35,277 nucleotides of DNA from a virus (Duplodnaviria; Heunggongvirae; Uroviricota; Caudoviricetes). The DNA lies in the IMG/VR virus record IMGVR_UViG_651053023_000020; one strand, given 5' to 3'. Numbering within the stretch: position 1 is the stretch's first letter; each line of letters starts with the position of its first letter. A program made the translations under genes and the position numbers. This document shows positions 8,078 through 31,512 of the stretch, piece by piece. The notes below the pieces were generated by a model. The model was given only the letters and a program-made list of their open reading frames with translations. It did not search any database and was not told where the DNA came from.

Positions 8078-8107
8078 AAAACCGCTAATGGTCAGATTAG
8101 CGGTTTT
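8078..8107. terminator. bidirectional terminator hairpin between convergent U and invertase genes
   Basis: Perfect 12-bp stem AAAACCGCTAAT / ATTAGCGGTTTT, loop GGTCAG, flanked by A-run and T-run; overlaps last codons of invertase. Confidence 0.6.
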
Positions 8108-8696
8108 CATTTTCCTGAGTCTGCCCGGTTGTTTCTTCAGTCTGTATATCGCCTACAGGGTGATAACGATAAATCGTCGATGTGCCAATGCCGTAAATTA
8201 TTGCCAGTTGTTTTCTGTCGTGCCCGTTTTTGATTAGCCTTGCTATTTGCTCATGCTGTTCTTTTGTCAGCTTCGGTCGACGTCCGCCTGTGCGCCCCCT
8301 TGCGCGCGCTGCCGCCAGCCCGGCCAGTGTACGTTCAACAATTAATTCACGTTCCATTTCAGCCAGGGCACCCATCACGTGGAAGAAAAAACGCCCCATT
8401 GGAGAAGATGTGTCTATGCTGTCGGTCAGACTGCGAAAATTAATCCCTCGCTCCCGTAGTTCCCCGACGAGAGAAATCAGATGTTTCATGCTTCGCCCGA
8501 GGCGATCCAGTTTCCAGACAACCAGCGTGTCACCTTTTTGAAGGCGCTTTAAAGCGCGTTTTAATCCCGGTCGGTCTGTCTTTGTCCCGCTTAATTTATC
8601 TTCAAATATTTGTTCACATCCTGCACAAACAAGAGCGTTTCGTTGCAGGTCTGTATTCTGGTCATTTGTTGATACCCTTACATAGCCAATCAGCAC
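8097..8696 (-). CDS. serine recombinase, DNA invertase of Gin/Pin/Cin/Fin family
   Basis: Translation LIGYVRVSTNDQNTDLQRNAL...GDTLVVWKLDRLGRS... is near-identical in pattern to Gin-type invertases; start placed at GTG 8696 with GGGAGA SD. Confidence 0.9.
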   Translation of the reverse strand: MLIGYVRVSTNDQNTDLQRNALVCAGCEQIFEDKLSGTKTDRPGLKRALKRLQKGDTLVVWKLDRLGRSMKHLISLVGELRERGINFRSLTDSIDTSSPMGRFFFHVMGALAEMERELIVERTLAGLAAARARGRTGGRRPKLTKEQHEQIARLIKNGHDRKQLAIIYGIGTSTIYRYHPVGDIQTEETTGQTQENENR

Positions 8697-8750
8697 GCTG
8701 AATCTCCCGTCCAAAAGCGTAAATCATGCCATGCAGGTCAGAAACGGCCA

Positions 8751-8776
8751 TTATCTAAAACCTCGGTTTACAGGAA
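8751..8776. other. gix-like 26-bp crossover site (left boundary of invertible segment)
   Basis: TTATCTAAAACCTCGGTTTACAGGAA, matches gix/hix architecture; central dinucleotide TC. Confidence 0.8.
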
Positions 8777-8800
8777 ACGGTAAACAGGGCTGGTAACGCC

Positions 8801-9760
8801 GTGCAAAAAAATGGCGATACCTTGTCCGGTGGGCTTACTTTTGAAAATGACTCAATCCTTGCCTGGATTCGAAATACTGACTGGGCGAAGATTGGATTTA
8901 AAAATGATGCCGATGGTGACACTGATTCATACATGTGGTTTGAAACAGGCGACAACGGCAATGAATATTTCAAATGGAGAAGCAAACAAAGCACCACAAC
9001 AAAAGACCTGATGAATCTTAAATGGGATGCTTTGTATGTTCTTGTCAATGCCATTGTAAATGGCGAAGTCATATCAAAATCAGCAAACGGCCTACGTATT
9101 GCTTATGGTAATTACGGATTCTTTATTCGTAATGATGGTTCAAATACATACTTCATGTTGACAAACTCCGGTGACAACATGGGGACTTATAACGGATTAA
9201 GGCCATTATGGATTAATAACGCTACTGGCGCTGTTTCGATGGGGCGTGGCCTTAATGTTTCAGGGGAGACACTTTCAGACCGTTTTGCTATTAACAGCAG
9301 TAATGGTATGTGGATTCAGATGCGCGATAACAACGCTATCTTTGGGAAAAATATAGTTAACACTGATAGCGCTCAGGCGTTACTTCGCCAGAATCACGCC
9401 GACCGAAAGTTCATGATAGGTGGACTGGGGAACAAGCAATTTGGCATCTACATGATTAATAACTCAAGGACAGCCAATGGCACCGATGGTCAGGCGTACA
9501 TGGATAATAACGGGAACTGGCTTTGCGGTGCGCGAGTTATTCCCGGCAATTATGGTAATTTTGACTCACGTTATGTGAGAGATGTCCGACTTGGCACACG
9601 TGTTGTTCAGACTATGCAAAAAGGCGTGATGTATGAGAAATCAGGTCATGCAATTACGGGGCTTGGCATTGTCGGTGAAGTTGATGGCGATGATCCGGCA
9701 GTATTCAGACCAATACAAAAATACATCAATGGCACATGGTATAACGTCGCACAGGTGTAA
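8801..9760 (+). CDS. alternative tail fibre C-terminal (receptor-binding) domain, currently unfused (silent orientation)
   Basis: Frame is open from 8759, just inside the gix site; after inversion it would join the H constant part in frame (..YLGL|QETVNR..). Confidence 0.75.
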   Translation: MQKNGDTLSGGLTFENDSILAWIRNTDWAKIGFKNDADGDTDSYMWFETGDNGNEYFKWRSKQSTTTKDLMNLKWDALYVLVNAIVNGEVISKSANGLRIAYGNYGFFIRNDGSNTYFMLTNSGDNMGTYNGLRPLWINNATGAVSMGRGLNVSGETLSDRFAINSSNGMWIQMRDNNAIFGKNIVNTDSAQALLRQNHADRKFMIGGLGNKQFGIYMINNSRTANGTDGQAYMDNNGNWLCGARVIPGNYGNFDSRYVRDVRLGTRVVQTMQKGVMYEKSGHAITGLGIVGEVDGDDPAVFRPIQKYINGTWYNVAQV

Positions 9761-9763
9761 TTT

Positions 9764-10291
9764 ATGCAGCATTTAAAAAATATTAAGTCTGGAAATCCAA
9801 AAACAAAAGAACAATATCAGCTAACAAAGAATTTTGATGTTATCTGGTTATGGTCCGAAGACGGAAAAAACTGGTATGAGGAAGTGAAAAACTTTCAGCC
9901 AGACACAATAAAGATTGTTTACGATGCAAATAATATTATTGTCGCCATCACCAAAGATGCCTCCACGCTTAACCCTGAAGGTTATAGCGTCGTTGAGGTT
10001 CCTGATATTACAGCTAATCGTCGTGCTGATGATTCCGGTAAGTGGATGTTTAAGGACGGAGCTGTGGTTAAACGGATTTATACGGCAGACGAGCAACAAC
10101 AACAGGCCGAATCACAAAAGGCTGCGTTACTTTCCGAAGCAGAAAACGTTATTCAGCCACTGGAACGCGCTGTCAGGCTGAATATGGCGACGGATGAAGA
10201 GCGCGCACGACTGGAGTCATGGGAACGCTACAGCGTTCTGGTCAGCCGTGTGGATACAACAAAGCCAGAATGGCCACAAAAGCCTGAGTAA
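9764..10291 (+). CDS. tail fibre assembly chaperone, alternative copy
   Basis: 175 aa, N-terminal half about 70% identical to the expressed copy at 10320-10853. Confidence 0.8.
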
Positions 10292-10296
10292 AAATT

Positions 10297-10316
10297 AAGG
10301 CCCGATATCGGGCCTT
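10297..10316. terminator. palindromic hairpin between convergent fibre-assembly genes
   Basis: Perfect palindrome AAGGCCCGATATCGGGCCTT at the centre of the invertible segment. Confidence 0.55.
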
Positions 10317-10319
10317 CTC

Positions 10320-10853
10320 TCATTCTGGTTGTTCGGGGAACGTGACTGGCAGGACGGAGGTATCCGTAGACTCTACTTTCTGCGCGTAGAGCAGCCACTC
10401 GGTCAATTTTTGTTTATTCTCAGCAGAAATAATTCCAAGTCGTAGCTGAGAATCCCATAGCTGAGTTTTATCCCTGACGAGTTGTAACAGGTTTTGCTTC
10501 TCATTTTCCGCCTGTTGTCTCTGTTCTTCTTCGGTATATTCCCGCTTTATCACTGCGCCATCTTTGAACATCCAGTTACCCGAAATATCAGCACGGCGAT
10601 TTGCTGTAATATCAGGTAATTCAACGACGCTTGCGCCTTCTGGATTAATTGCTGAAACATCCTTTTCAATACAAATAATAACGCCGTTATGGTCATAGAC
10701 CATTTTCAACGTATCAGACTGGAAATTCTTTTGTTCCTCATACCAGTTTTTTCCATCCTCTGTATAAAGCCATTTGATGTTAAATCGCTTTGTTAGCTGG
10801 TATTGCTCCACTGTTTTAGGATTGCCAGCAGTAATATTTTTTAAGTGCATCAT
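10320..10853 (-). CDS. G: tail fibre assembly chaperone (gpG-like), expressed orientation
   Basis: 177-aa ORF immediately downstream of H, start overlaps H stop. Confidence 0.85.
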   Translation of the reverse strand: MMHLKNITAGNPKTVEQYQLTKRFNIKWLYTEDGKNWYEEQKNFQSDTLKMVYDHNGVIICIEKDVSAINPEGASVVELPDITANRRADISGNWMFKDGAVIKREYTEEEQRQQAENEKQNLLQLVRDKTQLWDSQLRLGIISAENKQKLTEWLLYAQKVESTDTSVLPVTFPEQPE

Positions 10854-10855
10854 AA

Positions 10856-12832
10856 TTAAATACTCCCCACGTTATACCAAGTCCCATTAATGCAATACTG
10901 AATTGGCCTTGCCTGAGTTGTATCAATTAGTTCATCTCTATTTGAGTTAACGGAACCGGTAACAACATAACCTGACTTATCAGACCAACCAGGTCCATTC
11001 CATGTCTGAACAGATGATAGGCCTCCTAAACGGACGCCTGTAATAAATCGTGAATTACATTCTGCTTTGGTATATGCACCAATATCTCCTGCTGATGGTT
11101 TGTGAGCGGTTGTATATAGTTGCGCCCATCCAGACCAATTAGCATCTGCTGTATCTCGTCGGGAGCGAATATATGCCGGAGCATGACCGCCGCTGGTCCC
11201 ACTCCACCCAATAAATAACTCTCCTTCGCCAACTGCCGCTACACCAGTAAGATGAAGAACGTTACCATAAGCAAAAGGATATCCATTTTTGTACGCTTCA
11301 TACATTTGGATACCTGGCGTACCCTTTGCGCTCCCACTTAATGCTGTAACACGGTTTCGGGATACTAACGTATTAATATTTATATCACTGGAACCATCAA
11401 ATTTAACGCCATTAATATTTCTTGCTGTTTTTAGCTTTGTTGCAGTAGCGGCATTGCCGGACAGCTCCCCAGAAAGGCCACCGCTGAATGTTTGTCGATT
11501 GGTCCAGGTATTCGCTGTACTGAGTAACGGTATTTTTTCCCCGCTTGTGCCGAGTTCTCGTAAACCGAGGTATTCGATAACGGCAGCAACGGTCGATTTC
11601 GCAAGAATATCCCGCCCGACTTTTGTCAGGGTTGCCAGGCTGGCGACATCATTCCCCGTAAAATACGGAAACTTGTCTGCCGCAGTAGCAAGCCCGGCCA
11701 GCGCCGTCAGGGTGGCATCTTTCGGTTGCTTACCCGCAAGCGCGTTAGTCATGGTGGTCGCAAAATTCGGGTCGTTTCCCAGCGCCGCCGCTAACTCGTT
11801 CAGCGTATTCAGTGCGTCAGGTGACGAATCTACAAGGGCGGCAATCGCAGCCATAACGAAAGCCGTGCTTGCGATTTGGGTATTATTCGTTCCCTGTCGC
11901 GCAGTTGGCGTTGTTGGCGTTCCGGTCAACGCAGGACTGTTTAAGGGCGCTTTCTTGTTCGTTTCATCCATTACCGCCTTAACCGCTTTCGATGTCGCGG
12001 CCAGTGTTTCAGACGTGCTGTTGGTGGCACTACTGAGCTGGACTATCCCTTTTTGTGCCGTCGTGGCGTCCTGAGCGGTATATTTTGCGTTAGCAAGGTC
12101 ATACGCGGCCTTTACTGCTTTCGGCGTTGCAGCCTGCGTTTCAGACGTGCTGTTGGTGGCGCTACTGAGCTGGACAAGGCCTTTTCGCGCTGTAGTGGCG
12201 TCCTGTGCGGTATATTTCCCGTTAGCAAGGTCATAGGCTGCCTTGACCGCTTTCGGCGTTGCGGCCAGTGCTTCAGACGTGCTGTTGGTGGCGCTACTGA
12301 GTTGAACAAAGCCTTTTGCGGTCAGCGAGGCGTCCGGGTGACGTCGTGACTGTTCGTGCTCTGAGATTTTGTCATCCACATATTTGCGGGTTGCCAGAAC
12401 CACAGACGGGTCGATTTTCAGCGTGATGGCTTCGGTGTTCGTGACAACCAGAATCATGCGGATAGTCTGGGTGCGTCCACTGCCTTCCTGCAACTGCGGT
12501 TTGTACGTTTCCGGGCAGTTCGCCACCGCAATGAGTACGCCTTCATCATCATAAAGCCCAATCTCACGGATCCAGAATCCTCCCTCGTTTTCAGGGATAA
12601 TTTGCTCCGCAATAATCTGGCTCTGATTGTTAGGGTCAACGCTCAGAAGATTCAGCGGTGCAATGCGTTTCTGGTTAATCAGTTTTGTCTGTGCCGGGTC
12701 TGGTGTCGGTAATACACCATTCGCATCACCAACGGCCATTTGCGTCAGATTCAGCTTACTGCCGAGCATCGTCGCGTTAGCCAGTCGTGCCGCGCCCTGA
12801 TTAGTCAGAATGGCGTAGTATTTCACTGTCAT
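10856..12832 (-). CDS. H: tail fibre protein gpH (constant N-terminal part plus currently fused variable C-terminal part)
   Basis: 658 aa; N-terminus resembles P2 gpH; gix-like site lies inside the coding region at 11555-11580. Confidence 0.9.
   Translation of the reverse strand: MTVKYYAILTNQGAARLANATMLGSKLNLTQMAVGDANGVLPTPDPAQTKLINQKRIAPLNLLSVDPNNQSQIIAEQIIPENEGGFWIREIGLYDDEGVLIAVANCPETYKPQLQEGSGRTQTIRMILVVTNTEAITLKIDPSVVLATRKYVDDKISEHEQSRRHPDASLTAKGFVQLSSATNSTSEALAATPKAVKAAYDLANGKYTAQDATTARKGLVQLSSATNSTSETQAATPKAVKAAYDLANAKYTAQDATTAQKGIVQLSSATNSTSETLAATSKAVKAVMDETNKKAPLNSPALTGTPTTPTARQGTNNTQIASTAFVMAAIAALVDSSPDALNTLNELAAALGNDPNFATTMTNALAGKQPKDATLTALAGLATAADKFPYFTGNDVASLATLTKVGRDILAKSTVAAVIEYLGLRELGTSGEKIPLLSTANTWTNRQTFSGGLSGELSGNAATATKLKTARNINGVKFDGSSDININTLVSRNRVTALSGSAKGTPGIQMYEAYKNGYPFAYGNVLHLTGVAAVGEGELFIGWSGTSGGHAPAYIRSRRDTADANWSGWAQLYTTAHKPSAGDIGAYTKAECNSRFITGVRLGGLSSVQTWNGPGWSDKSGYVVTGSVNSNRDELIDTTQARPIQYCINGTWYNVGSI
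11555..11580. other. gix-like 26-bp crossover site (right boundary, inside H)
   Basis: TTCTCGTAAACCGAGGTATTCGATAA, 22/26 match to reverse complement of the 8751-8776 site; central dinucleotide GA. Confidence 0.8.
11985..12360. repeat. three tandem repeats of about 126 bp inside H (42-aa fibre repeat VQLSSATNSTSE...KYTAQDATTA)
   Basis: Repeated ttcagacgtgctgttggtggcgctactgag... at roughly 12008, 12134 and 12264; approximate extent. Confidence 0.7.
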
Positions 12833-23067: not shown

Positions 23068-24113
23068 TGAGCAGAAAAAATAAAAAAGTGCGCATGAGTT
23101 CACGCATTGATCTCGCTGATGCGCTCAGGAAAGAATCATCGCTCAGTGCATTCACATTTGATGGTCCTTATCGCCTGACCGGGCATGACCTGCTGGACAA
23201 TATGTACTGTGCTGATAACGGGCGGTGGTATGAAACCCCGGTGGACTGGTACGGTCTGGCAAGAGCCGCCCGGCAAACGTCCTGGCATCAGTCTGCGCTT
23301 TACTTTAAGCGCAATGTATTGCTCGGTTGCTACATCCCGCACCCGCTGCTTTCCCGGCAGGATTTCTCGGCGCTGGCGCTGGACTGGTTTGTGTTCGGTA
23401 ACGCATTCCTTGAGCTTCGAAGCAATATGCTCGGCGAACCGCTTAAATTACGGCACGCCCTGGCGAAATACATGCGACGCGGAAGCGATCTTGAATCATG
23501 GTGGTATGTGCAGGATGGCAAGGATGCGTTTCAGTTTCGCCCTGGCAAAGTGTGCCACCTGATGAATCCGGATATTAACCAGGAAATCTACGGCATGCCG
23601 GAATATCTTGGCGCATTACTCTCGGCCAGCCTTTCTCATTCGGCGGACATGTTCAGAAAACTGTACTACGACAACGGATCCCACGCCGGGTGCATCATCT
23701 ACATCGGTGCAGCGCAGGTAAACCGCGAAAGCATGGACTCCCTGAAAGAAACGTTACAGGGTGCGCGTGGTGGTGGTGCATTTAAAAACGTGCTCATTCA
23801 TGCGCCCAACGGGGGCAAAGAAGGTGTGCAAATTTTGCCGTTCCAGCAGATCACCGCAAAGGATGAGTTCATGAATGTTAAGGCGGCATCCCGTGATGAT
23901 GTACTGGCTGCGCACCGCGTTCCGCCGCAACTGATGGGGGCGATGCCGGGTGAAAAAAGTGCGTTTGGTGATGTGGAGAAGGCCGCGCGGGTTTACGCAA
24001 TTAACGAGCTGATGCCCGTCATGGAGGCCATGAAGCACATCAATGACTGGCTTGGCGAAGAGGTGATCCGCTTTAACCCTTACGCACTGTTAGACACCCA
24101 GCCCACATCCTGA
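23067..24113 (+). CDS. Q: portal protein gpQ
   Basis: 348 aa, start overlaps P stop (TGATG). Confidence 0.9.
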   Translation: MSRKNKKVRMSSRIDLADALRKESSLSAFTFDGPYRLTGHDLLDNMYCADNGRWYETPVDWYGLARAARQTSWHQSALYFKRNVLLGCYIPHPLLSRQDFSALALDWFVFGNAFLELRSNMLGEPLKLRHALAKYMRRGSDLESWWYVQDGKDAFQFRPGKVCHLMNPDINQEIYGMPEYLGALLSASLSHSADMFRKLYYDNGSHAGCIIYIGAAQVNRESMDSLKETLQGARGGGAFKNVLIHAPNGGKEGVQILPFQQITAKDEFMNVKAASRDDVLAAHRVPPQLMGAMPGEKSAFGDVEKAARVYAINELMPVMEAMKHINDWLGEEVIRFNPYALLDTQPTS

Positions 24114-24130
24114 CGCGCTTCGCTTGTCTG

Positions 24131-24153
24131 CTGCTTCGCCGGGGCATAAAAAA
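24131..24153. other. stable hairpin immediately downstream of Q (no clear U-tract)
   Basis: GGGGCATAAA-AAA-TTTATGCCCC inverted repeat. Confidence 0.4.
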
Positions 24154-24409
24154 TTTATGCCCCGACTCTCCAGCTCCTGTATCAATCAGATAATTTCACG
24201 ATGCTTTTCTGCTGATTGCCATCATCGACAGTCAGACTCTTACGCAATCCCACCGCGTTGACTGCATGTTCTCGCCGTCTCAGTGCGATTTTGACGGCCT
24301 TACCTAAATCAAAAGCCCTCACGTCTTTTTCACGCTCAGCGTGAGAAATACAGCCATTCTGTTGTATCTCTGCGACATCGTTCAGGGAATGCTATTTACC
24401 CCCTGAAAC

Positions 24410-24440
24410 GCGGGCTGTTCCCCCGTCACCCGCGCGCAAC
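24410..24440. other. candidate cos region
   Basis: Expected location next to Q; G/C-rich tract gctgttcccccgtcacccgcgcgc loosely resembles the reverse complement of the P2-type cohesive end as I recall it; not an exact match. Confidence 0.3.
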
Positions 24441-24592
24441 AAAAACGCGTTTTTTGTGCACGCACGGATCCTTGACGGATCCAGCCGCCATGCGGGCCGG
24501 AAGGGTAAAAAGTCGTTCAAAAAAATTGTGCAAATTTGTGCACTATTGTGCAGCAGGGCGATGTGTGATTATCGCCCTGGTTTGTCGTGGAT

Positions 24593-25132
24593 CTAATTAT
24601 CTTCTGTCTCCTGCCACGAGACTTTTCCGCCTGCCTTTATGATGGCTTGCTCAACATCCCGTTCGTATCGCAAAGGCTGGAATACGCCGTTAATGAAATA
24701 CTCCTTTGGGTCCGGGATCGATACGGTAAATTTGTCATTCTCTGGTTTTGGTATTGGTGAGACTGGATGCTCGTTTTTGGCAAGTTTTTTTATGACTCCC
24801 TCGTATTTTTCTTTTGTACATTGCATCGCCTCTTCAAAAGAAAGCGCTTTGTTACGCATTAACACGGCGTACTTTAGTGCATCCTGTGCTTTCTGGAATT
24901 TAAGTGCATAGTCCGTGGCGATTTTTTCCAGTTCAGCAGCCCGCCTTCGAAGCCCTTCAATCTCACCATTGCGGGCGATGAGGTTGCAGCACATTCTTTC
25001 ATTCTCATCCAGCAACACCAGCACAACCGATGGTGTCACCTGTTCATGGAAAATATCCGCATCATATCCCCAGTCATCATGTATTGCCTGCTCTGCCGCT
25101 TCACGCAGTGCCTGATAGTCAATCTTGCTCAT
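24593..25132 (-). CDS. Ead/Ea22-like protein (function unknown)
   Basis: N-terminal IDYQALREAAEQA motif typical of Ea22-like proteins; last gene of accessory operon. Confidence 0.5.
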   Translation of the reverse strand: MSKIDYQALREAAEQAIHDDWGYDADIFHEQVTPSVVLVLLDENERMCCNLIARNGEIEGLRRRAAELEKIATDYALKFQKAQDALKYAVLMRNKALSFEEAMQCTKEKYEGVIKKLAKNEHPVSPIPKPENDKFTVSIPDPKEYFINGVFQPLRYERDVEQAIIKAGGKVSWQETEDN

Positions 25133-25653
25133 TGGATGACTCCTTTGTGTTGCGTCAGCTCTTCCTGTGCCTGCATCATGCGATTGACCTGAACGCGTGT
25201 GCGTCGAACGGAAAAAACAAACAGATTCAAAAGGCGGCGCATCTCTTTGTCCTCATGTCGCGCATGACGGATAAAGGTAAGTCGGTAGAACTCGGATTCG
25301 GCAGCGCGTTGAATCAACGACAGATCAAAGTGAAGTGCTGGTCTGGTGCATTTTGCGCATCTGGCGGCAAGCTCTGGCATCAATCTCTTAACGAAGGTGT
25401 TTTGTACTGCTTTGTTGAGTTGTGTCTGCATCCAAATCGCAAATTTCAGCGAACGCATGAGCCGGATCGCGTCGGGCAACGGCAGATAGATCATGCTGGC
25501 GGTTTTGGGTAGCGGATGAATCATTTTCACGGAGACGCGATCGCGCAGTGTTCGAAAAATCGTGTTCCCGACAACAGACTCCACGGAGACAGGGCAGGGG
25601 GCCAGACCAACCCGCAACGCGTTCGTCATGAACAGATATTCATCTTTTTTCAT
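25129..25653 (-). CDS. hypothetical protein (accessory operon)
   Basis: ORF 25129-25719; preferred start ATG 25653 with AAGGA SD (174 aa); stop overlaps Ea22-like start; no family recognised. Confidence 0.5.
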   Translation of the reverse strand: MKKDEYLFMTNALRVGLAPCPVSVESVVGNTIFRTLRDRVSVKMIHPLPKTASMIYLPLPDAIRLMRSLKFAIWMQTQLNKAVQNTFVKRLMPELAARCAKCTRPALHFDLSLIQRAAESEFYRLTFIRHARHEDKEMRRLLNLFVFSVRRTRVQVNRMMQAQEELTQHKGVIQ

Positions 25654-25719
25654 CGTGTTTTCCTTAGTGCGGGGGCGACAGTGCGCCCCGATAAAATTAA
25701 AAGCCGTCAAATTCGTCAT

Positions 25720-26052
25720 TCATCTTCCTGCTCCCTGCGTTCCTTGTTCTTCTCGGATAACGCTGTTGCACACTTCCACACACTCGTCGCAGATGAAAAC
25801 GTCGTCCCCGGCAATTAACTTTTTGATGGCGTGCTGTGGTTTCTTGCAGAAGCTGCAATAAAGCGTTTGCCTGATAGATACGGATGATGTGTAGGATGTC
25901 AGCCTCGCGATGTCGTTCTTGCGGCGCAACATCACACGGCAGCACTCAACCAGTTTCTCCGGGGCGATTTCTTCCTCTGTGGCGAGCGCCTCCAGTCGTT
26001 CGAGTATGTTGAAGGCTTTTTCCTCGGTAATTGCAGAATGCGATGTGGTCAT
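25720..26052 (-). CDS. protein with C-terminal ClpX-type C4 zinc-finger (ZBD) domain
   Basis: [39 protein letters not shown] closely matches the ClpX N-terminal zinc-binding domain; start at ATG 26052 with AAGGAG SD. Confidence 0.65.
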
Positions 26053-26063
26053 CTCTTTCTCCT

Positions 26064-26264
26064 TCAAAGTTCAGTGTGCTGACAGAGGTGTCCTTTGCGA
26101 CAGACCAGGACGCTTCCCTTACTTGAGTCGGTGATTGTCACCGTGCCGTCATCGCACTGGACAACGATGACGGTGTTGCTCTTTTCCGTTGCGCAGTTCG
26201 GCGTGGTTGAATGCGCCAACGGAATGAAAAACAGCGAAAAAAGTAATGTCAGTCTTTTCATCAT
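26064..26264 (-). CDS. small secreted protein with signal peptide and four Cys
   Basis: [19 protein letters not shown] signal-peptide-like N-terminus; 66 aa; tightly linked upstream of the ZBD gene. Confidence 0.45.
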
Positions 26265-26338
26265 GGATGCCTCATGCTTACTGTTCTGAAGGCATGACTT
26301 ACTAAATAAAACTGTCCGTCATGCCTTATCACGTCTCC

Positions 26339-26650
26339 TTATTCGGGGAATAACGCCCTGATGTTTGCGGCCATCTGGCTGGTTGGCTGCGCCTCTGGCG
26401 CAGCCTGTGCTTTGGTTTTTTCCTCCCTGACCTGTGTCACGGGTAACGCCTCATCGTCAGCCCATGCAGCCAGTCGGTAAGCCTCTGCCGGATTCATTTT
26501 CAGAAGTGCCAGCCCGGCCAGAAAAGCCACACGTTGGCCGCTTTTGCGGGCTTCTGGTGTAAGGCTGTCCAGCCAGGCGCATGCTTCGCCTTCGTTCTTG
26601 ACGGCGGCGGGCTTCAGATAGAAACTTATCCGTCTGGTTGGTGTCGTCAT
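26339..26650 (-). CDS. ParR-like centromere-binding protein (StbB-like)
   Basis: RRISFYLKP...WLDSL...AFLAGLAL pattern resembles R1 ParR N-terminal RHH region; ATG 26650 with AAGGAG SD, 5 nt after ParM-like stop. Confidence 0.55.
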   Translation of the reverse strand: MTTPTRRISFYLKPAAVKNEGEACAWLDSLTPEARKSGQRVAFLAGLALLKMNPAEAYRLAAWADDEALPVTQVREEKTKAQAAPEAQPTSQMAANIRALFPE

Positions 26651-26654
26651 TGGT

Positions 26655-27614
26655 TTACTCCTTGTCCATTGCGTACAGCCCATTAACCAGAGCAAACTGT
26701 GGCACCCCGTCCGCGATGAAAGTCGCATTAACTCCGCAGGCTTCGCGGATAGCGGGTGCCACAATCTCCGCCCCGCCACCGACAACCATCACCCGCCCGT
26801 AACCCGAAAAACCCGCCAGCGCGCGGATCACGCGTTGTTTCAGTGTTTCTTCCTTTTCACGAATAACCGCCATCAGGCTGTCGTAATGCGCGTCATTGTG
26901 GATGTGCTGGCGCAGCCAGGCTTCATCGTGGCGATGTTCGATAATGGTATTGGCGATATGGTGACTGGTACGCATACCGTTAGTGGCCATCACCGACAGT
27001 ACGGCATCGGCCATCAGGGAAACGCCTACGTGTGGATCGCAAAACACCTGGCTGATACCTGCCAGTTGTCCCTGGACCTTTGCCACATCCAGCGTGGTTC
27101 CGCCTAAATCCACAATCAGCAGGGATTCAAACGGACTCATGTCAGCCAGTGCCTTAAAGCCAGCCGGAATGGATTCAGGCATAACCCGCACGTTACGGAT
27201 AGTGAATGCTTCGCCGTTCTGGTACTCCACCGGGCGCATAACGTTCGCTTTTTTGCGGTTGATGTTGGCCATGTCCGGCTGTGCGTTTGTGTCGAAATAC
27301 TCGCTCAGTGGCAGGGTGACAACCACATCCACCTCCTGTGGTGTGATGCCTGATTTGACCAGCGCGTGGTGAATGGCGATTACATTCACATCGCTGTACT
27401 GGTATTGCGTGTCGGTCGTCTGGACAAAGCGATCGCTGACCGGATCAAAACCATAGCGCACGCCATCAAGCATGTAGTTCGCAGGCTGCGAGCCACCGAA
27501 CGGCGCAGACCATTCCGACTTGAAGCTGTTCGGGCTGATGGCGTTGCGGCGTTCGCTGTTCTCAGTCCATGCCAGCTTGATGTTGGTGGAGCCGTCGTCG
27601 ATACAAATTTTCAT
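26655..27614 (-). CDS. ParM/StbA-like actin-family segregation ATPase
   Basis: IDDGSTNIKLAW, SPNSFK, YQYSDVNVIAIHHAL, MPESIPAG, LLIVDLGGTTLD, VMVVGGGAE and LVNGLY motifs match plasmid R1 ParM as recalled. Confidence 0.75.
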   Translation of the reverse strand: MKICIDDGSTNIKLAWTENSERRNAISPNSFKSEWSAPFGGSQPANYMLDGVRYGFDPVSDRFVQTTDTQYQYSDVNVIAIHHALVKSGITPQEVDVVVTLPLSEYFDTNAQPDMANINRKKANVMRPVEYQNGEAFTIRNVRVMPESIPAGFKALADMSPFESLLIVDLGGTTLDVAKVQGQLAGISQVFCDPHVGVSLMADAVLSVMATNGMRTSHHIANTIIEHRHDEAWLRQHIHNDAHYDSLMAVIREKEETLKQRVIRALAGFSGYGRVMVVGGGAEIVAPAIREACGVNATFIADGVPQFALVNGLYAMDKE

Positions 27615-27646
27615 GTCGCTTTTCCTTATGTTGATTAATTAATCGA

Positions 27647-27755
27647 TTACGGGATTCTGAAATCCCGTTTTTGCCTGTTTTGTGCGCGCTTCATATATCG
27701 CTGCGCGTTTTTTGCTCATTTACGGGATTCGTGAGTCCCGTTTCTGTCTGTTTTT
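27647..27755. repeat. two about 36-bp direct repeats each containing a hairpin (candidate parC-like centromere/operator)
   Basis: ttacgggattctgaaatcccgtttttgcctgtttt (27647-27682) and ttacgggattcgtgagtcccgtttctgtctgtttt (27719-27755); second copy overlaps the 3' end of gene A. Confidence 0.5.
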
Positions 27756-30512
27756 GTTTCCGCTGGTCAGGCCACCCCGCAGCAGGTCTGCTTTGCGGCG
27801 GGCGCGTTCAGTGGTTTCACTGATTCTCTGTGCGTGCTCTGCGTCGCGGATGGCGCGCAGCATGTCAGAAAGCACGGTAACGGGTGTTTTCATGGTGTTC
27901 TGGTCCTGCTGAAGTGTGGATGCCAGGCGTGCGGCGGCTTCAGGGTCTGATGCCCCCAGCTGTGCCAGATAGCTGGCGGCCGGGTTATGGCGGATCTCCG
28001 TGCTGCTTACGCCGTGATTACGGCTCAGGCGCTGCCAGAGCTGCGTGATTCGGCTGTCCGGGCGGGTATCCGGTTTGCGTACAATTTCAAATCCCTGCGG
28101 TGCAATGATGCTGCCGTCAACGTACAGACTGCCGCCCCGTAACAGGTGCTGCATCTGTTGTTCACCGATATGCAGGCCGAGAGATTCAGCAGACTCCCGC
28201 CATTCTTTAGCGAGTAACTCGTGGTTATCAGGCAAAGGCCGCTGCTGTTTGCGGCTCTGTGTCCAGTTCTGCATTTCATCGCTGCTGTTTTTTGCCTGTT
28301 TGTCACGAAGCGAACGCATCAGCGCCCGGCGTTCGTGCCGTTTCAGTGAGCGCATCCATTCATTTACTTCAACGCCGTCAGGAAGCTGCGGCCACGGTGC
28401 TGGCCGTTCTTCCGGCTGTTCTGTCCCGTTGTTGCCTGTTTCCTGTACACGGGGACAGTTATTGCCACGAGTCCAAGGGGCGGTAGGGCCGCCCTGAAGG
28501 TCAAAACCATTTTCGCGGGCGCTGTCTTCCGCTTCCGGTTTACGTCTTACCAGCTTCCAGTTATCCGGGTGCGTGCACACGCGGGAAGACTCCCCGATGA
28601 GCGGCGACCAGATCCCGTAAATCTGTACACTCTGCTCGCCGTAATCGTTCAGCTCATCTGCGAGGTCGTAGGCGGTGCGAATCAGGTAGTCTTTACGTGG
28701 AACAAGTACGCCGCCCTGTTTTTCAATGTAGGAGGCAAAACACCCGGCATCAGCGGCAGCGAGTACCGCATCCATTGCATCATCCTTCAGCCGTTGCGGG
28801 CCTTCCGGGTTGCGTGCCATCTGGCTGGCAAGGCGGCGGAGTTCACGCCATACCTGACGGGAGGGGATGCCAAAGAACTGGAACTGGCGGACCCGATGAA
28901 GACGCGCCCAGCCAATGGCGCGCTCCACGCTCTCGGCCATTGATTTTCCGGTTTCGTGGTCAACGCGTGGCTTGCCCGTTTTCGGGTCGATGCCATCTAC
29001 GGCGCGGCTGTCCAGGTTTTTTCCGATGTAGGTCGCGATATAGCTGGTTGGTGTGCCTTTTGAGCCGTCGACATACTCCGCCTTAAAGCGCGGAGTAATA
29101 TCATCGCCCAGTTCGTGACGATCTTCCTGAATGGCAATATCGCGGGTGATGGCCACGATGCTGTCGATTTCTTCCGGATGAGCAAAGACCATCATATGCC
29201 AGTGCACGGTGCCGTCATGGTGAGGCTCCACCGTGCGGATGCCATACCAGCGCAGGCCGTCGCGGTTCAGTTTTTTGCGGACCGCCGCAAAAAACGTGTT
29301 AACCAGGTAATCGCTGGAGTCGCGCATGGTGGCCCCGTTCCATTTGGGGTTCGGATGACCGTTCTCCGTTGTTGCGTGGTATTTTGACGGGCAGGTGACA
29401 GTCAGAAACACCGCTTTGTCACCACGGGCTTCGGCCAGAAGTTCCAGCCCCTTCATGGTGGCCATCATTTCTGCCTTACGGTGAACCGGGTTACTTACTC
29501 CCGCGTAATACACTGTCTCGAGATCAATCGTGAACCCGTCTTCATTTTCCAGCATGAAACTTTTCAGGAAATCGCGTGTTTTCTCGCGCTGTGCGCGAAA
29601 CTCGCTTAACGCGTCCTGGCTCAGATAGGGCGATGTTTTTCTGGAAACCAGACAGGCGGCGCGGAGTTGTTCTTCTCTCCACTCGCAACGTAACAGCCAC
29701 AGTTTGCGTTTCCACCATTCTGCACAGGTCAGGCGAAGGATTGCGCCCGGCAGCAGCTCCGTGTCCGGTTCGTTCCTCCGGTCTTTGTCTGTTGTCAGTG
29801 CGTCATAATGTGGAGGCATGGCGTGCAGGTGTAACGCCATGCGGGCCAGCATCTGATACGCCTTCAGCGTTACATCCATGGTCAGTTCGCCATCGGTCGC
29901 GCCAAAGCCATCGCAGAGTTTTTCGAAGGTGCTGCTGAACATCGCCGCCGTCATGGTGGCCAGTGTCTGTATCTGGTGTTTGTTGAGCTGCGGCAGGTAA
30001 AGCAAATCGTCCAGGCGTTCGCGTCCGGCAAGGGAGCGATAACCCTGTGTCAGCCAGCGGTGATCGGTGCGCTCCAGACGTTCGAATATTTTGCGCAGGT
30101 TTCCGCGCGCGTAGCGTTCAGCCTGCCAGCTCTTTTTGCCTTTCTGACGATCGGCTTCCTGTTTTTTGCGCAGGAAGGAGAGGTGGCGAATAAGCGGATC
30201 GCGCAGATAGGACGGCAGCAGGCGCAGCGAGGCCATGGCTTCATCCACCGCGCCGCGTGCCTGTTTTCTGGCATCTCCTGCCAGTGTGATGGTTTTGTCC
30301 TGTTTTTCCTGTGCGTCCAGGCTTTTATTAATCAGGTTGCCCAGCGGCGTTGCGGAGAACGCCGCATCAGCCATTTCCTGGCGGCGCTCGTTCTCTACCC
30401 GGTAGGCATCCAGCCAGGAGGAAAGCGCGGATTCAGGAGCGGGGATCCCCGTTCCTTCACGCCCCACTGCGTGGCGCGGTTGTTGCCAGTCCCTGATGTA
30501 CTCTGCCGTCAT
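27720..30512 (-). CDS. A: replication initiation protein gpA (rolling-circle endonuclease)
   Basis: 930-aa ORF with HUH-like GTVHWHMMVF and YIATYIGKN motifs; noticeably longer than the P2 A length I recall. Confidence 0.85.
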   Translation of the reverse strand: MTAEYIRDWQQPRHAVGREGTGIPAPESALSSWLDAYRVENERRQEMADAAFSATPLGNLINKSLDAQEKQDKTITLAGDARKQARGAVDEAMASLRLLPSYLRDPLIRHLSFLRKKQEADRQKGKKSWQAERYARGNLRKIFERLERTDHRWLTQGYRSLAGRERLDDLLYLPQLNKHQIQTLATMTAAMFSSTFEKLCDGFGATDGELTMDVTLKAYQMLARMALHLHAMPPHYDALTTDKDRRNEPDTELLPGAILRLTCAEWWKRKLWLLRCEWREEQLRAACLVSRKTSPYLSQDALSEFRAQREKTRDFLKSFMLENEDGFTIDLETVYYAGVSNPVHRKAEMMATMKGLELLAEARGDKAVFLTVTCPSKYHATTENGHPNPKWNGATMRDSSDYLVNTFFAAVRKKLNRDGLRWYGIRTVEPHHDGTVHWHMMVFAHPEEIDSIVAITRDIAIQEDRHELGDDITPRFKAEYVDGSKGTPTSYIATYIGKNLDSRAVDGIDPKTGKPRVDHETGKSMAESVERAIGWARLHRVRQFQFFGIPSRQVWRELRRLASQMARNPEGPQRLKDDAMDAVLAAADAGCFASYIEKQGGVLVPRKDYLIRTAYDLADELNDYGEQSVQIYGIWSPLIGESSRVCTHPDNWKLVRRKPEAEDSARENGFDLQGGPTAPWTRGNNCPRVQETGNNGTEQPEERPAPWPQLPDGVEVNEWMRSLKRHERRALMRSLRDKQAKNSSDEMQNWTQSRKQQRPLPDNHELLAKEWRESAESLGLHIGEQQMQHLLRGGSLYVDGSIIAPQGFEIVRKPDTRPDSRITQLWQRLSRNHGVSSTEIRHNPAASYLAQLGASDPEAAARLASTLQQDQNTMKTPVTVLSDMLRAIRDAEHAQRISETTERARRKADLLRGGLTSGNKNRQKRDSRIP

Positions 30513-31187: not shown

Positions 31188-31368
31188 GGTGTTTGGCCTC
31201 TTCGTTTGTGAGTTTTTGGATACTCACCAACCAGAGTTGAGAATCTCGGGGTGGCGAGACGTACGGGGTTCTCAACACCGGCAAACGAAGAAACCGGCCC
31301 GACCGAAGTCGGCCCCGTACGCCCCACCATAATTCTGATGCGAAAAAGACGTGGCAATACAGTACGCA

Positions 31369-31389
31369 CAAAAAAACCGCTGGCGCGGT
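31369..31389 (-). terminator. intrinsic terminator-like hairpin inside early operon
   Basis: Minus strand reads AACCGC-GCCA-GCGGTT followed by TTTTTTT. Confidence 0.5.
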
Positions 31390-31512
31390 TGTGCGCTTCG
31401 TTTGTCAGCAGGTTGAGAATCCCGGCACCCGTTTTATGAGGTGCAGCGGAAATGTAACCTGACTGATTGCGGTATGGCAAGCGGTTTTTTTGTGTGTGCA
31501 TGTTCTGGTTTC

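Follow-up and report, generated by a model that had tools for sequence, protein, structure and literature searches.

A ParMRC-like partition cassette beside a variable cargo slot in a P88-like prophage of Escherichia coli: a probable composite locus

Described relatives of the locus

Type II partition cassettes (ParMRC, or StbA/StbB) are carried by the low-copy plasmids R1 and R100, where a centromere/promoter region is followed by parM and then by parR. We have analysed a 35,277-nucleotide (nt) stretch of viral DNA (IMG/VR record IMGVR_UViG_651053023_000020; 'the window' denotes the whole of this stretch) in which a cassette with the same order, its centromere being a candidate one, and with a ParR of the same Pfam family (PF10784), lies in an integrating P2-family phage beside replication gene A rather than on a plasmid. 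The ParR of the window also departs from that of R1/R100 in being shorter, at 103 amino acids (aa), and in ending in an LFPE motif. The window corresponds to a P88-like prophage (Xuanwuvirus, P2 family) in E. coli UMNF18, a diarrhoeal isolate of porcine origin; with this strain the 3.4-kb interval of interest shares 100% identity. This interval holds six genes on the minus strand: parM, parR and genes for a 66-aa protein, a look-alike of the ClpX zinc-binding domain (ZnF), a 174-aa protein and an Ead/Ea22-like protein. A reading made from the sequence alone had proposed that these genes form a single undescribed accessory system for defence, exclusion or maintenance, whereas our results indicate that the interval is most probably a composite of a ParMRC-like partition cassette and a recombination-prone cargo slot, and not one system.

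Cassettes of this general kind have been described on other integrated elements. SrpMRC of the SXT/R391 integrative and conjugative elements (ICEs) reduces loss of an integrative element whose excised circle replicates in rolling-circle mode via a relaxase (PMC4489591). The likeness to the present locus is that of a ParM-type cassette on a normally integrated element with a rolling-circle initiator; the differences are that an ICE is not a phage and that SrpMR is only distantly related to ParMR of R1, whereas ParM of the window is a close relative. In the Corynebacterium glutamicum prophage CGP3, AlpAC is needed for efficient phage replication after induction (PMC4446434), although AlpC is a distant actin-like protein and the host is Gram-positive.

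The locus itself has been catalogued by Rousset et al. 2022 (PMC9122126), who analysed 18,150 gpA-gpQ loci. According to that source, about a quarter of E. coli P2-like phages have a putative plasmid-partitioning system at this locus, and the most frequent system (number 1 of Table S5B, which combines Plasmid_stab_B and StbA) occurs in 4592 of the 18,150 loci. Table S5A of the same source lists the arrangement StbA, Plasmid_stab_B, zf-C4_ClpX, hypothetical and Ead_Ea22, with at least 489 occurrences of StbA, at least 197 of DUF4760, at least 81 of Ead_Ea22 and at least 43 of zf-C4_ClpX. Maintenance as plasmids was suggested there for phages with partition genes, and no test of the StbA/Plasmid_stab_B cassette was found in its text and tables. 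The window shares with system number 1 the locus, the two genes and the listed arrangement, to which it adds the 66-aa gene, a ZnF allele of the type found in phage D6 and a different Ea22 allele. Because both cassette and gene arrangement had been listed, the term 'undescribed' is not supported. The window offers one more cargo combination, and a rare one, for a known hotspot, joined to a widespread partition cassette noted earlier; for the most part, we have come upon a locus that had already been catalogued and whose small genes are uncharacterised. The main points of interest are that an integrating phage keeps a ParMRC cassette under strong selection and what role the ClpX zinc-domain look-alike plays.

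A conserved cassette and a variable slot

Our analysis gave direct sight of gene identities, of the alternation of constant and variable parts, of slot boundaries, of purifying selection and of prior cataloguing; all biochemical activities discussed below are inferred. All six genes were present as open reading frames (ORFs) where they had been placed from the sequence alone, and Pfam and PHROG searches bore out the domain identities proposed for them (ParM, ParR, ZnF and Ea22-like), as they stand in Table 1; the 66-aa protein has a signal-peptide-like N-terminus and four cysteines.

Table 1. Features of the interval and of its immediate surroundings (positions are those of the window)
Feature	Coordinates	Strand	Evidence or remarks
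Gene A, rolling-circle replication endonuclease	27720..30512	-	PF05840 E 3e-131; directly upstream of the cassette
Candidate parC-like centromere and promoter region	27647..27754	-	two 35-nt direct repeats, 27647-27681 and 27720-27754
parM, actin-like segregation ATPase, 319 aa	26655..27614	-	Pfam StbA_N E 8e-82; ParM C-terminal domain E 1e-68; phrog_691 'partition protein'
parR, centromere-binding adaptor, 103 aa	26339..26650	-	PF10784 E 9e-24; phrog_2515 E 1e-56
Cargo slot, variable	24553..26338	-	from the parR stop to the conserved terminator/cos backbone
66-aa protein gene	26064..26264	-	Sec-type signal peptide; phrog_20764 E 2.5e-11
ZnF, ClpX zinc-binding-domain look-alike, 110 aa	25720..26052	-	PF06689 E 3e-16; phrog_6797 E 4.5e-49
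174-aa orphan	25129..25653	-	predicted mostly helical; translationally coupled to the Ea22-like gene via an ATGA overlap
Ead/Ea22-like protein, 179 aa	24593..25132	-	PF13935 E 1.3e-13, 52.1 bits against a cut-off of 27, residues 2-118
Hairpin (24554-24579), then terminator-like stem and T-run (24528-24543)	24528..24579	-	terminator scan; closes the transcription unit

ParM aligned over its full length with the structure of R1 ParM (1mwk; E 3e-92, about 50% identity), and the nucleotide-binding motifs DDGSTNIK, DLGGTTLD and GGGAE (the phosphate-binding and adenosine motifs) are kept in this alignment. Across loci, ParR is conserved in its N-terminal region and in a C-terminal NI(R/Q)xLFPE motif, and the linker between them is hypervariable, a pattern that would be expected of a DNA-binding adaptor with a short filament-binding tail. 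A parR start at TTG 26785 was set aside, and the start was placed at ATG 26650, 4 nt past the parM stop.

The region upstream of parM is laid out as a repeat, a 38-nt core, a second repeat, 32 nt and the ATG, with the upstream repeat overlapping the gene A stop codon and with the two repeats 73 nt apart. Within each of them lies a 20-bp palindrome, ACGGGA-N8-TCCCGT, which occurs with no mismatches at these two sites only within the 35-kb window. The element was present in 79 of 79 related loci, its stems being mostly conserved and its loops variable. In SWHEFF_58, in which the end of gene A is different, homology begins exactly at the first repeat, and this indicated that the repeats are part of the partition cassette. 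The parC of R1 has ten 11-bp iterons, in repeat blocks that flank the par promoter; the layout seen here resembles it with far fewer units, and we treat the upstream repeats as a candidate centromere only.

This cassette is fixed in P88-like P2-family phages, beside the rolling-circle initiator gene A. ParM is 98-100% identical among 80 related IMG/VR viral contigs, and 1304 of 5426 complete E. coli genomes (24%) carry the cassette of repeats, parM and parR. The median ratio of nonsynonymous to synonymous substitution rates (dN/dS) was 0.053 for parM, with synonymous divergence (dS) of up to 0.18 among 81 sequences and with an intact ORF in essentially all loci, while that for parR was 0.24. 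These low ratios indicate that the two genes are kept by selection in prophages. A scan of species-representative genomes with ParM gave 3 close relatives only. One record labelled Vagococcus sp. (NZ_JBQPOM010000071.1) has, on a 226-kb contig, a ParM with 97% identity to this protein of the E. coli phage, and is probably a case of contamination or mislabelling.

It is possible to imagine that ParMR is a fragment of a plasmid, now in decay and carried along by the prophage without function, because an integrating phage has no obvious need for partition and because damaged copies occur now and then. One locus (L048) has an in-frame premature stop in parR and another (L024) a shortened copy of this gene, which shows that the cassette decays occasionally despite overall purifying selection. 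We nevertheless regard functionless decay as highly improbable given the strength of selection on parM over the observed range of dS, the intact ORF, the conservation of both the upstream repeats and the C-terminal motif of ParR, and the presence of the cassette in about one in four complete E. coli genomes.

Downstream of parR the picture is reversed. Directly after the parR stop there were 41 distinct continuations among 77 loci. The point at which homology returned was window position 24551-24553 for 41 loci and 24593 for 14, a little upstream of a terminator-like 26-mer. This 26-mer was exact in 46 loci and present with three or fewer mismatches in 58, and the cos-proximal region was matched in 61 loci. 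Across 80 related viral contigs the distance from parR to the portal gene ranged from 995 to 4176 bp with very varied gene content. The fraction of guanine plus cytosine (GC) is 0.48-0.51 in the slot as against about 0.55 in the flanks. Constant flanks around a variable interior define a backbone consisting of the repeats, parM, parR, the slot, the terminator and cos, in which the four genes downstream of parR are the present occupants.

Six related prophages illustrate this exchange, since all have gene A, parM and parR while each has different genes between parR and cos. The slot holds ZnF and a 112-aa protein in P88; DUF4760 and a membrane protein, on the opposite strand, in PV468777; ZnF, the 174-aa gene and Ea22 in CFS3292; the 66-aa gene, SSB, a 159-aa protein and Ea22 in SWHEFF_58; a damaged ZnF, the 174-aa gene, an Ea22 fragment, a 197-aa protein and a YafO-family toxin in CDE6306; and the 174-aa gene and Ea22 in EA2. 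The pair formed in CDE6306 by the 197-aa protein and the toxin has an entry of its own, as the system 'YafO_toxin', in Table S5B of Rousset et al. (PMC9122126). A longer ordered array (66aa-SSB-ZnF-169aa-Ea22) recurs in other P88-like contigs, and the cargo of the window looks like a deletion variant of it. Partial combinations are common; some loci have Ea22 by itself, and some have ZnF but lack the 174-aa gene. Elsewhere, ZnF and Ea22 genes are present in the absence of ParMR, namely in the P1-like phage D6, a 110-kb plasmid and lambdoid phages; in D6 the ZnF and Ea22-like genes stand side by side among small accessory genes, and the 110-kb plasmid carries ZnF.

The tight coupling that had been claimed for the six genes was upheld at three junctions, namely parM/parR (a 4-nt gap), the 66-aa gene/ZnF (an 11-nt gap) and the 174-aa gene/Ea22 (a 4-nt overlap, ATGA), and failed at the two others, where 74 nt separate parR from the 66-aa gene and 66 nt separate ZnF from the 174-aa gene. 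Each of these two gaps contains a GC-rich hairpin. The first is the junction of the cargo slot; the second is also a cassette boundary, because its sequence stands directly after the parR stop in loci of the L013/L043 type. In the window, GC-rich hairpins lie at the cassette junctions 26289-26327, about 25675-25697 and 24554-24579. Many related loci have CAGGGCG-loop-CGCCCTG right after the parR stop, and a similar hairpin follows the Ea22 stop in the window. Such hairpins may be attenuators, elements that stabilise RNA or points of recombination.

These observations bear on the proposal that all six genes are one co-functioning novel system. The genes are co-oriented, several junctions are short or overlapping and a single terminator-like site closes the unit. 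However, ParMR is found with dozens of unrelated cargos, the cargo genes occur elsewhere without ParMR, and the full cargo set was present in 2 of the 5426 complete genomes (both from pigs) as against 1304 for ParMR. Thus, when the comparison with other P2-like prophages was made, the six-gene module did not recur, among the complete genomes, beyond those two, and co-inheritance as a single system has hardly any probability left. By contrast, the composite of cassette and slot that we favour accounts for a constant part and a variable part. Because the slot boundaries are precise (from the parR stop to the terminator beside cos), the slot can be mined automatically for cargo, including bona fide defence systems in relatives.

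Possible roles of ParM and ParR

On balance, we lean towards a role of ParMR in segregating or positioning an extrachromosomal circle of the phage genome, and the 'maintenance' option offered from the sequence alone was therefore apt for this pair of genes. ParR would bind the repeats, as candidate centromere and autoregulated promoter, on circular phage DNA that would be replicated by means of the adjacent rolling-circle initiator gene A. The conserved C-terminal motif of ParR may then capture ParM filaments, which would push or position sister circles. In this manner a non-integrated genome may be kept from loss when the cell divides, be it prior to integration, following excision or during a carrier state. 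If a true ParMRC system does partition the phage circle, then prophages that are very common in E. coli would make the boundary between integrating phages and phage-plasmids less distinct, in parallel to SrpMRC for ICEs, with a bearing on lysogen stability and pseudolysogeny.

A number of observations weigh against this role. Among the cassette copies in complete E. coli genomes, 1450 of 1452 are chromosomal and 2 are on plasmids, which indicates that a stable plasmid lifestyle is not the norm. In favour of an extrachromosomal phase, one cat E. coli isolate has a complete P88-like genome deposited as a 34,461-bp circular 'plasmid' (NZ_CP148288.1), a record that includes integrase, gene A, parMR and structural genes; this could be a true episome or, alternatively, no stably kept plasmid but phage DNA after excision or induction. 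For a phage that integrates, the advantage of carrying partition genes is presumed. Further points concern the components themselves: the candidate centromere has two 35-nt repeat units in place of the ten 11-bp iterons of R1 parC, a promoter scan found no sigma-70 consensus promoter in 24000-28000, and no match of ParR to solved ParR proteins or other PDB sequences was detected. Finally, no experimental work on this cassette was found in the literature searched.

The same material can be read in favour of a use of ParMR mainly in lytic growth, where it would place or distribute the phage DNA under replication, in the manner of AlpAC in CGP3 (PMC4446434), rather than confer stability in the lysogenic or carrier state. 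The cassette is directly downstream of gene A and co-oriented with it, such that it may be transcribed with the early operon; moreover, almost all copies are integrated and a plasmid phase is not evident in assemblies. On the other hand, ParM is about 50% identical over its full length to the R1 protein, and so is closest to a system with a demonstrated partition role, while SrpMRC shows that a cassette of this type can stabilise an integrative element. We therefore view a mainly lytic function as rather unlikely, and continue to prefer segregation or positioning of the extrachromosomal circle.

Cargo genes and the source prophage

The position of the interval had been equated with the P2 old/tin hotspot, and this proved correct: the place flanked by gene A and by the portal/cos end is the old/tin locus of P2, and the equivalent slot in other P88-like phages holds systems that are recognised by PADLOC (IetA/IetS of IetAS, AbiLi/AbiLii of AbiL, RmrA, which is RosmerTA-like, and PDC-M04). 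The detection of slot cargos in relatives supports the hotspot reading and makes this library a meaningful control. The six proteins and gpA were scanned with PADLOC-DB v2 at E <= 0.1 and gave no matches, in agreement with the earlier statement that no known defence system is matched. The cargo is most probably composed of small accessory genes such as those of the early non-essential regions of lambdoid and P1-like phages, and would probably be transcribed by read-through from upstream promoters.

In the ZnF protein, a helical N-terminal region about 60 aa long precedes a C4 zinc finger. Residues 62-102 of the protein share about 73% identity with residues 10-50 of E. coli ClpX (2ds5/2ds8), a stretch of 41 residues in which the four cysteines are conserved. 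NCBIfam clpX models match residues 62-106 only, with 48 bits as against a cut-off of 371. A stand-alone protein of this size, with an unrelated helical N-terminal region and without the AAA+ unfoldase module, is not a ClpX. The allele in the window is 75% identical to those of the P1-like phage D6 and the 110-kb plasmid and 47-49% identical to that of P88. The ClpX zinc-binding domain (ZBD) in free form dimerises and, when supplied in trans, inhibits adaptor-mediated ClpXP degradation, including the RssB-dependent degradation of sigma-S (PMC7226468). The likeness to this domain and its inhibitory effect in trans make a decoy or heterodimerising modulator a reasonable inference, and by this analogy we tentatively suggest that ZnF may titrate, or heterodimerise with, the adaptor-docking N-domain of host ClpX and so alter ClpXP-dependent proteolysis. 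No relevant paper on phage-encoded ClpX zinc-domain proteins was found in the literature searched, and a mimic of the ClpX docking domain would be a type of host-takeover factor for which no description was found there. The look-alike thereby offers a directly testable hypothesis of phage interference with the regulated proteolysis of the host. That P88-like phages both run a facultative extrachromosomal phase via a ParMRC segrosome and rewire host ClpXP through ZnF mimicry of the adaptor-docking domain is a conjunction that we put forward with considerable doubt.

The product of lambda ea22 is reported to favour lysogeny, and the C-terminal domains of Ea22 homologues differ from one another (PMC7093339, PMC10834534). 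The protein of the window resembles lambda Ea22 in its Ead/Ea22 Pfam match and in its setting among small non-essential genes, and the DNA encoding its N-terminal approximately 42 aa (25005-25131) shares 86% identity with the 5' part of lambda ea22. The protein matched no PDB chain at E <= 1 and hence not the solved C-terminal domain of lambda Ea22, to which its own C-terminal domain has no detectable sequence similarity. The settings differ as well, in that lambda ea22 sits in a lambdoid early-left operon while the gene of the window occupies a late, cos-proximal slot in a P2-family phage. By analogy with lambda, the Ea22-like protein probably biases the decision between lysis and lysogeny.

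The 174-aa protein gave no match in Pfam, PHROG, NCBIfam or PADLOC. Its family is very narrow: an exhaustive profile search of 1.84 billion representatives recovered 3 clusters (50% identity) and brought no remote family to light. The predicted structure is helical and its fold matches were generic only. A 196-aa reading of this fifth gene was discarded, since loci of the L043 type have the added upstream part out of frame. The N-terminal 65-70 aa or so resemble the 197-aa protein of CDE6306 (L006, 2137-2730; hhalign probability 87%), which is encoded directly upstream of the YafO-family toxin; this resemblance gives a weak hint that the 174-aa protein may be a modular partner-binding protein, and a hint at most that it may form a toxin-antitoxin pair with the Ea22-like protein.

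The 66-aa protein has a predicted signal peptide of 19 residues, cut before TT, and 4 cysteines in a mature part of 47 aa, and its ATG has a GAGG ribosome-binding site 5 nt upstream. At this locus RefSeq has instead an antisense ORF on the plus strand (26095-26289, 64 aa). Counts of synonymous and nonsynonymous changes (10/17 versus 11/16 for the two strands) do not separate the frames. The homologue in SWHEFF_58 is 74% identical, keeps all 4 cysteines and is annotated on the minus strand, and a minus-strand gene was also called in contigs L091-L093. We adopted the minus-strand call because of the signal peptide, the conserved cysteines, the ribosome-binding site, the PHROG match and the annotation in relatives.

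These properties have to be weighed against a further explanation, in which the four cargo genes, or sub-modules such as the 174-aa/Ea22 pair or ZnF, form an undescribed anti-phage, superinfection-exclusion or counter-defence module and ParMR is a mere neighbour. The same slot carries IetAS, AbiL, RmrA and PDC-M04 in other P88-like phages, and several systems of this locus class were validated by Rousset et al. (PMC9122126). Every recovered context of the 174-aa family lies within this slot, and in the window its gene is coupled to the Ea22-like gene; the likeness of its N-terminal part to the protein upstream of the YafO-family toxin and the recurrence of the longer ordered arrays point the same way. 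Against such a module, the four proteins lack a PADLOC match although the library readily detects alternative cargos, they are small and without a recognisable effector domain, and many partial gene combinations occur. Furthermore, ZnF and Ea22 homologues are common in the early accessory regions of lambdoid, P1-like and large phage-plasmid genomes, and the role reported for lambda Ea22 is pro-lysogenic and not defensive (PMC7093339, PMC10834534). An undescribed module of this kind seems rather improbable to us, and none of our observations shows the locus to be a new defence system. As the slot elsewhere holds real defence systems, a role of the cargo in defence or counter-defence is at least as plausible as a regulatory one, and this counts against the regulatory functions suggested above as part of the composite that we favour.

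The prophage in UMNF18 is complete and of the P2 family. In the RefSeq annotation its order is tail, capsid, terminase, portal, the interval, gene A, early genes, Cox, repressor and integrase, beside ppa. The closest named phages are P88 and other Xuanwuvirus, with 94-98% identity over about 47% of the interval only. At the 3' end of gene A (27751-27755), UMNF18 has a run of five A residues where six related phages have six. This run is 1 nt shorter, so the last codons of gene A are shifted and the ORF stops at a TAA within the first parC-like repeat; the shifted end accounts for the RefSeq label of frameshifted pseudogene, and the extreme C-terminus alone is affected.

Two other regions of the prophage gave minor observations. 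In the early region, Rfam searches identified a C4 antisense RNA (79 bits) beside the Hfq-binding small RNA isrK (62 bits) at 31247-31444 on the minus strand. At about 8097-12832, where the GC fraction is 0.42-0.45, a 'recombinase family protein' gene (8097-8696) adjoins a tail-fibre gene that is truncated and a pair of tail-fibre-assembly genes of opposite orientation, and this segment looks like an invertible host-range segment.

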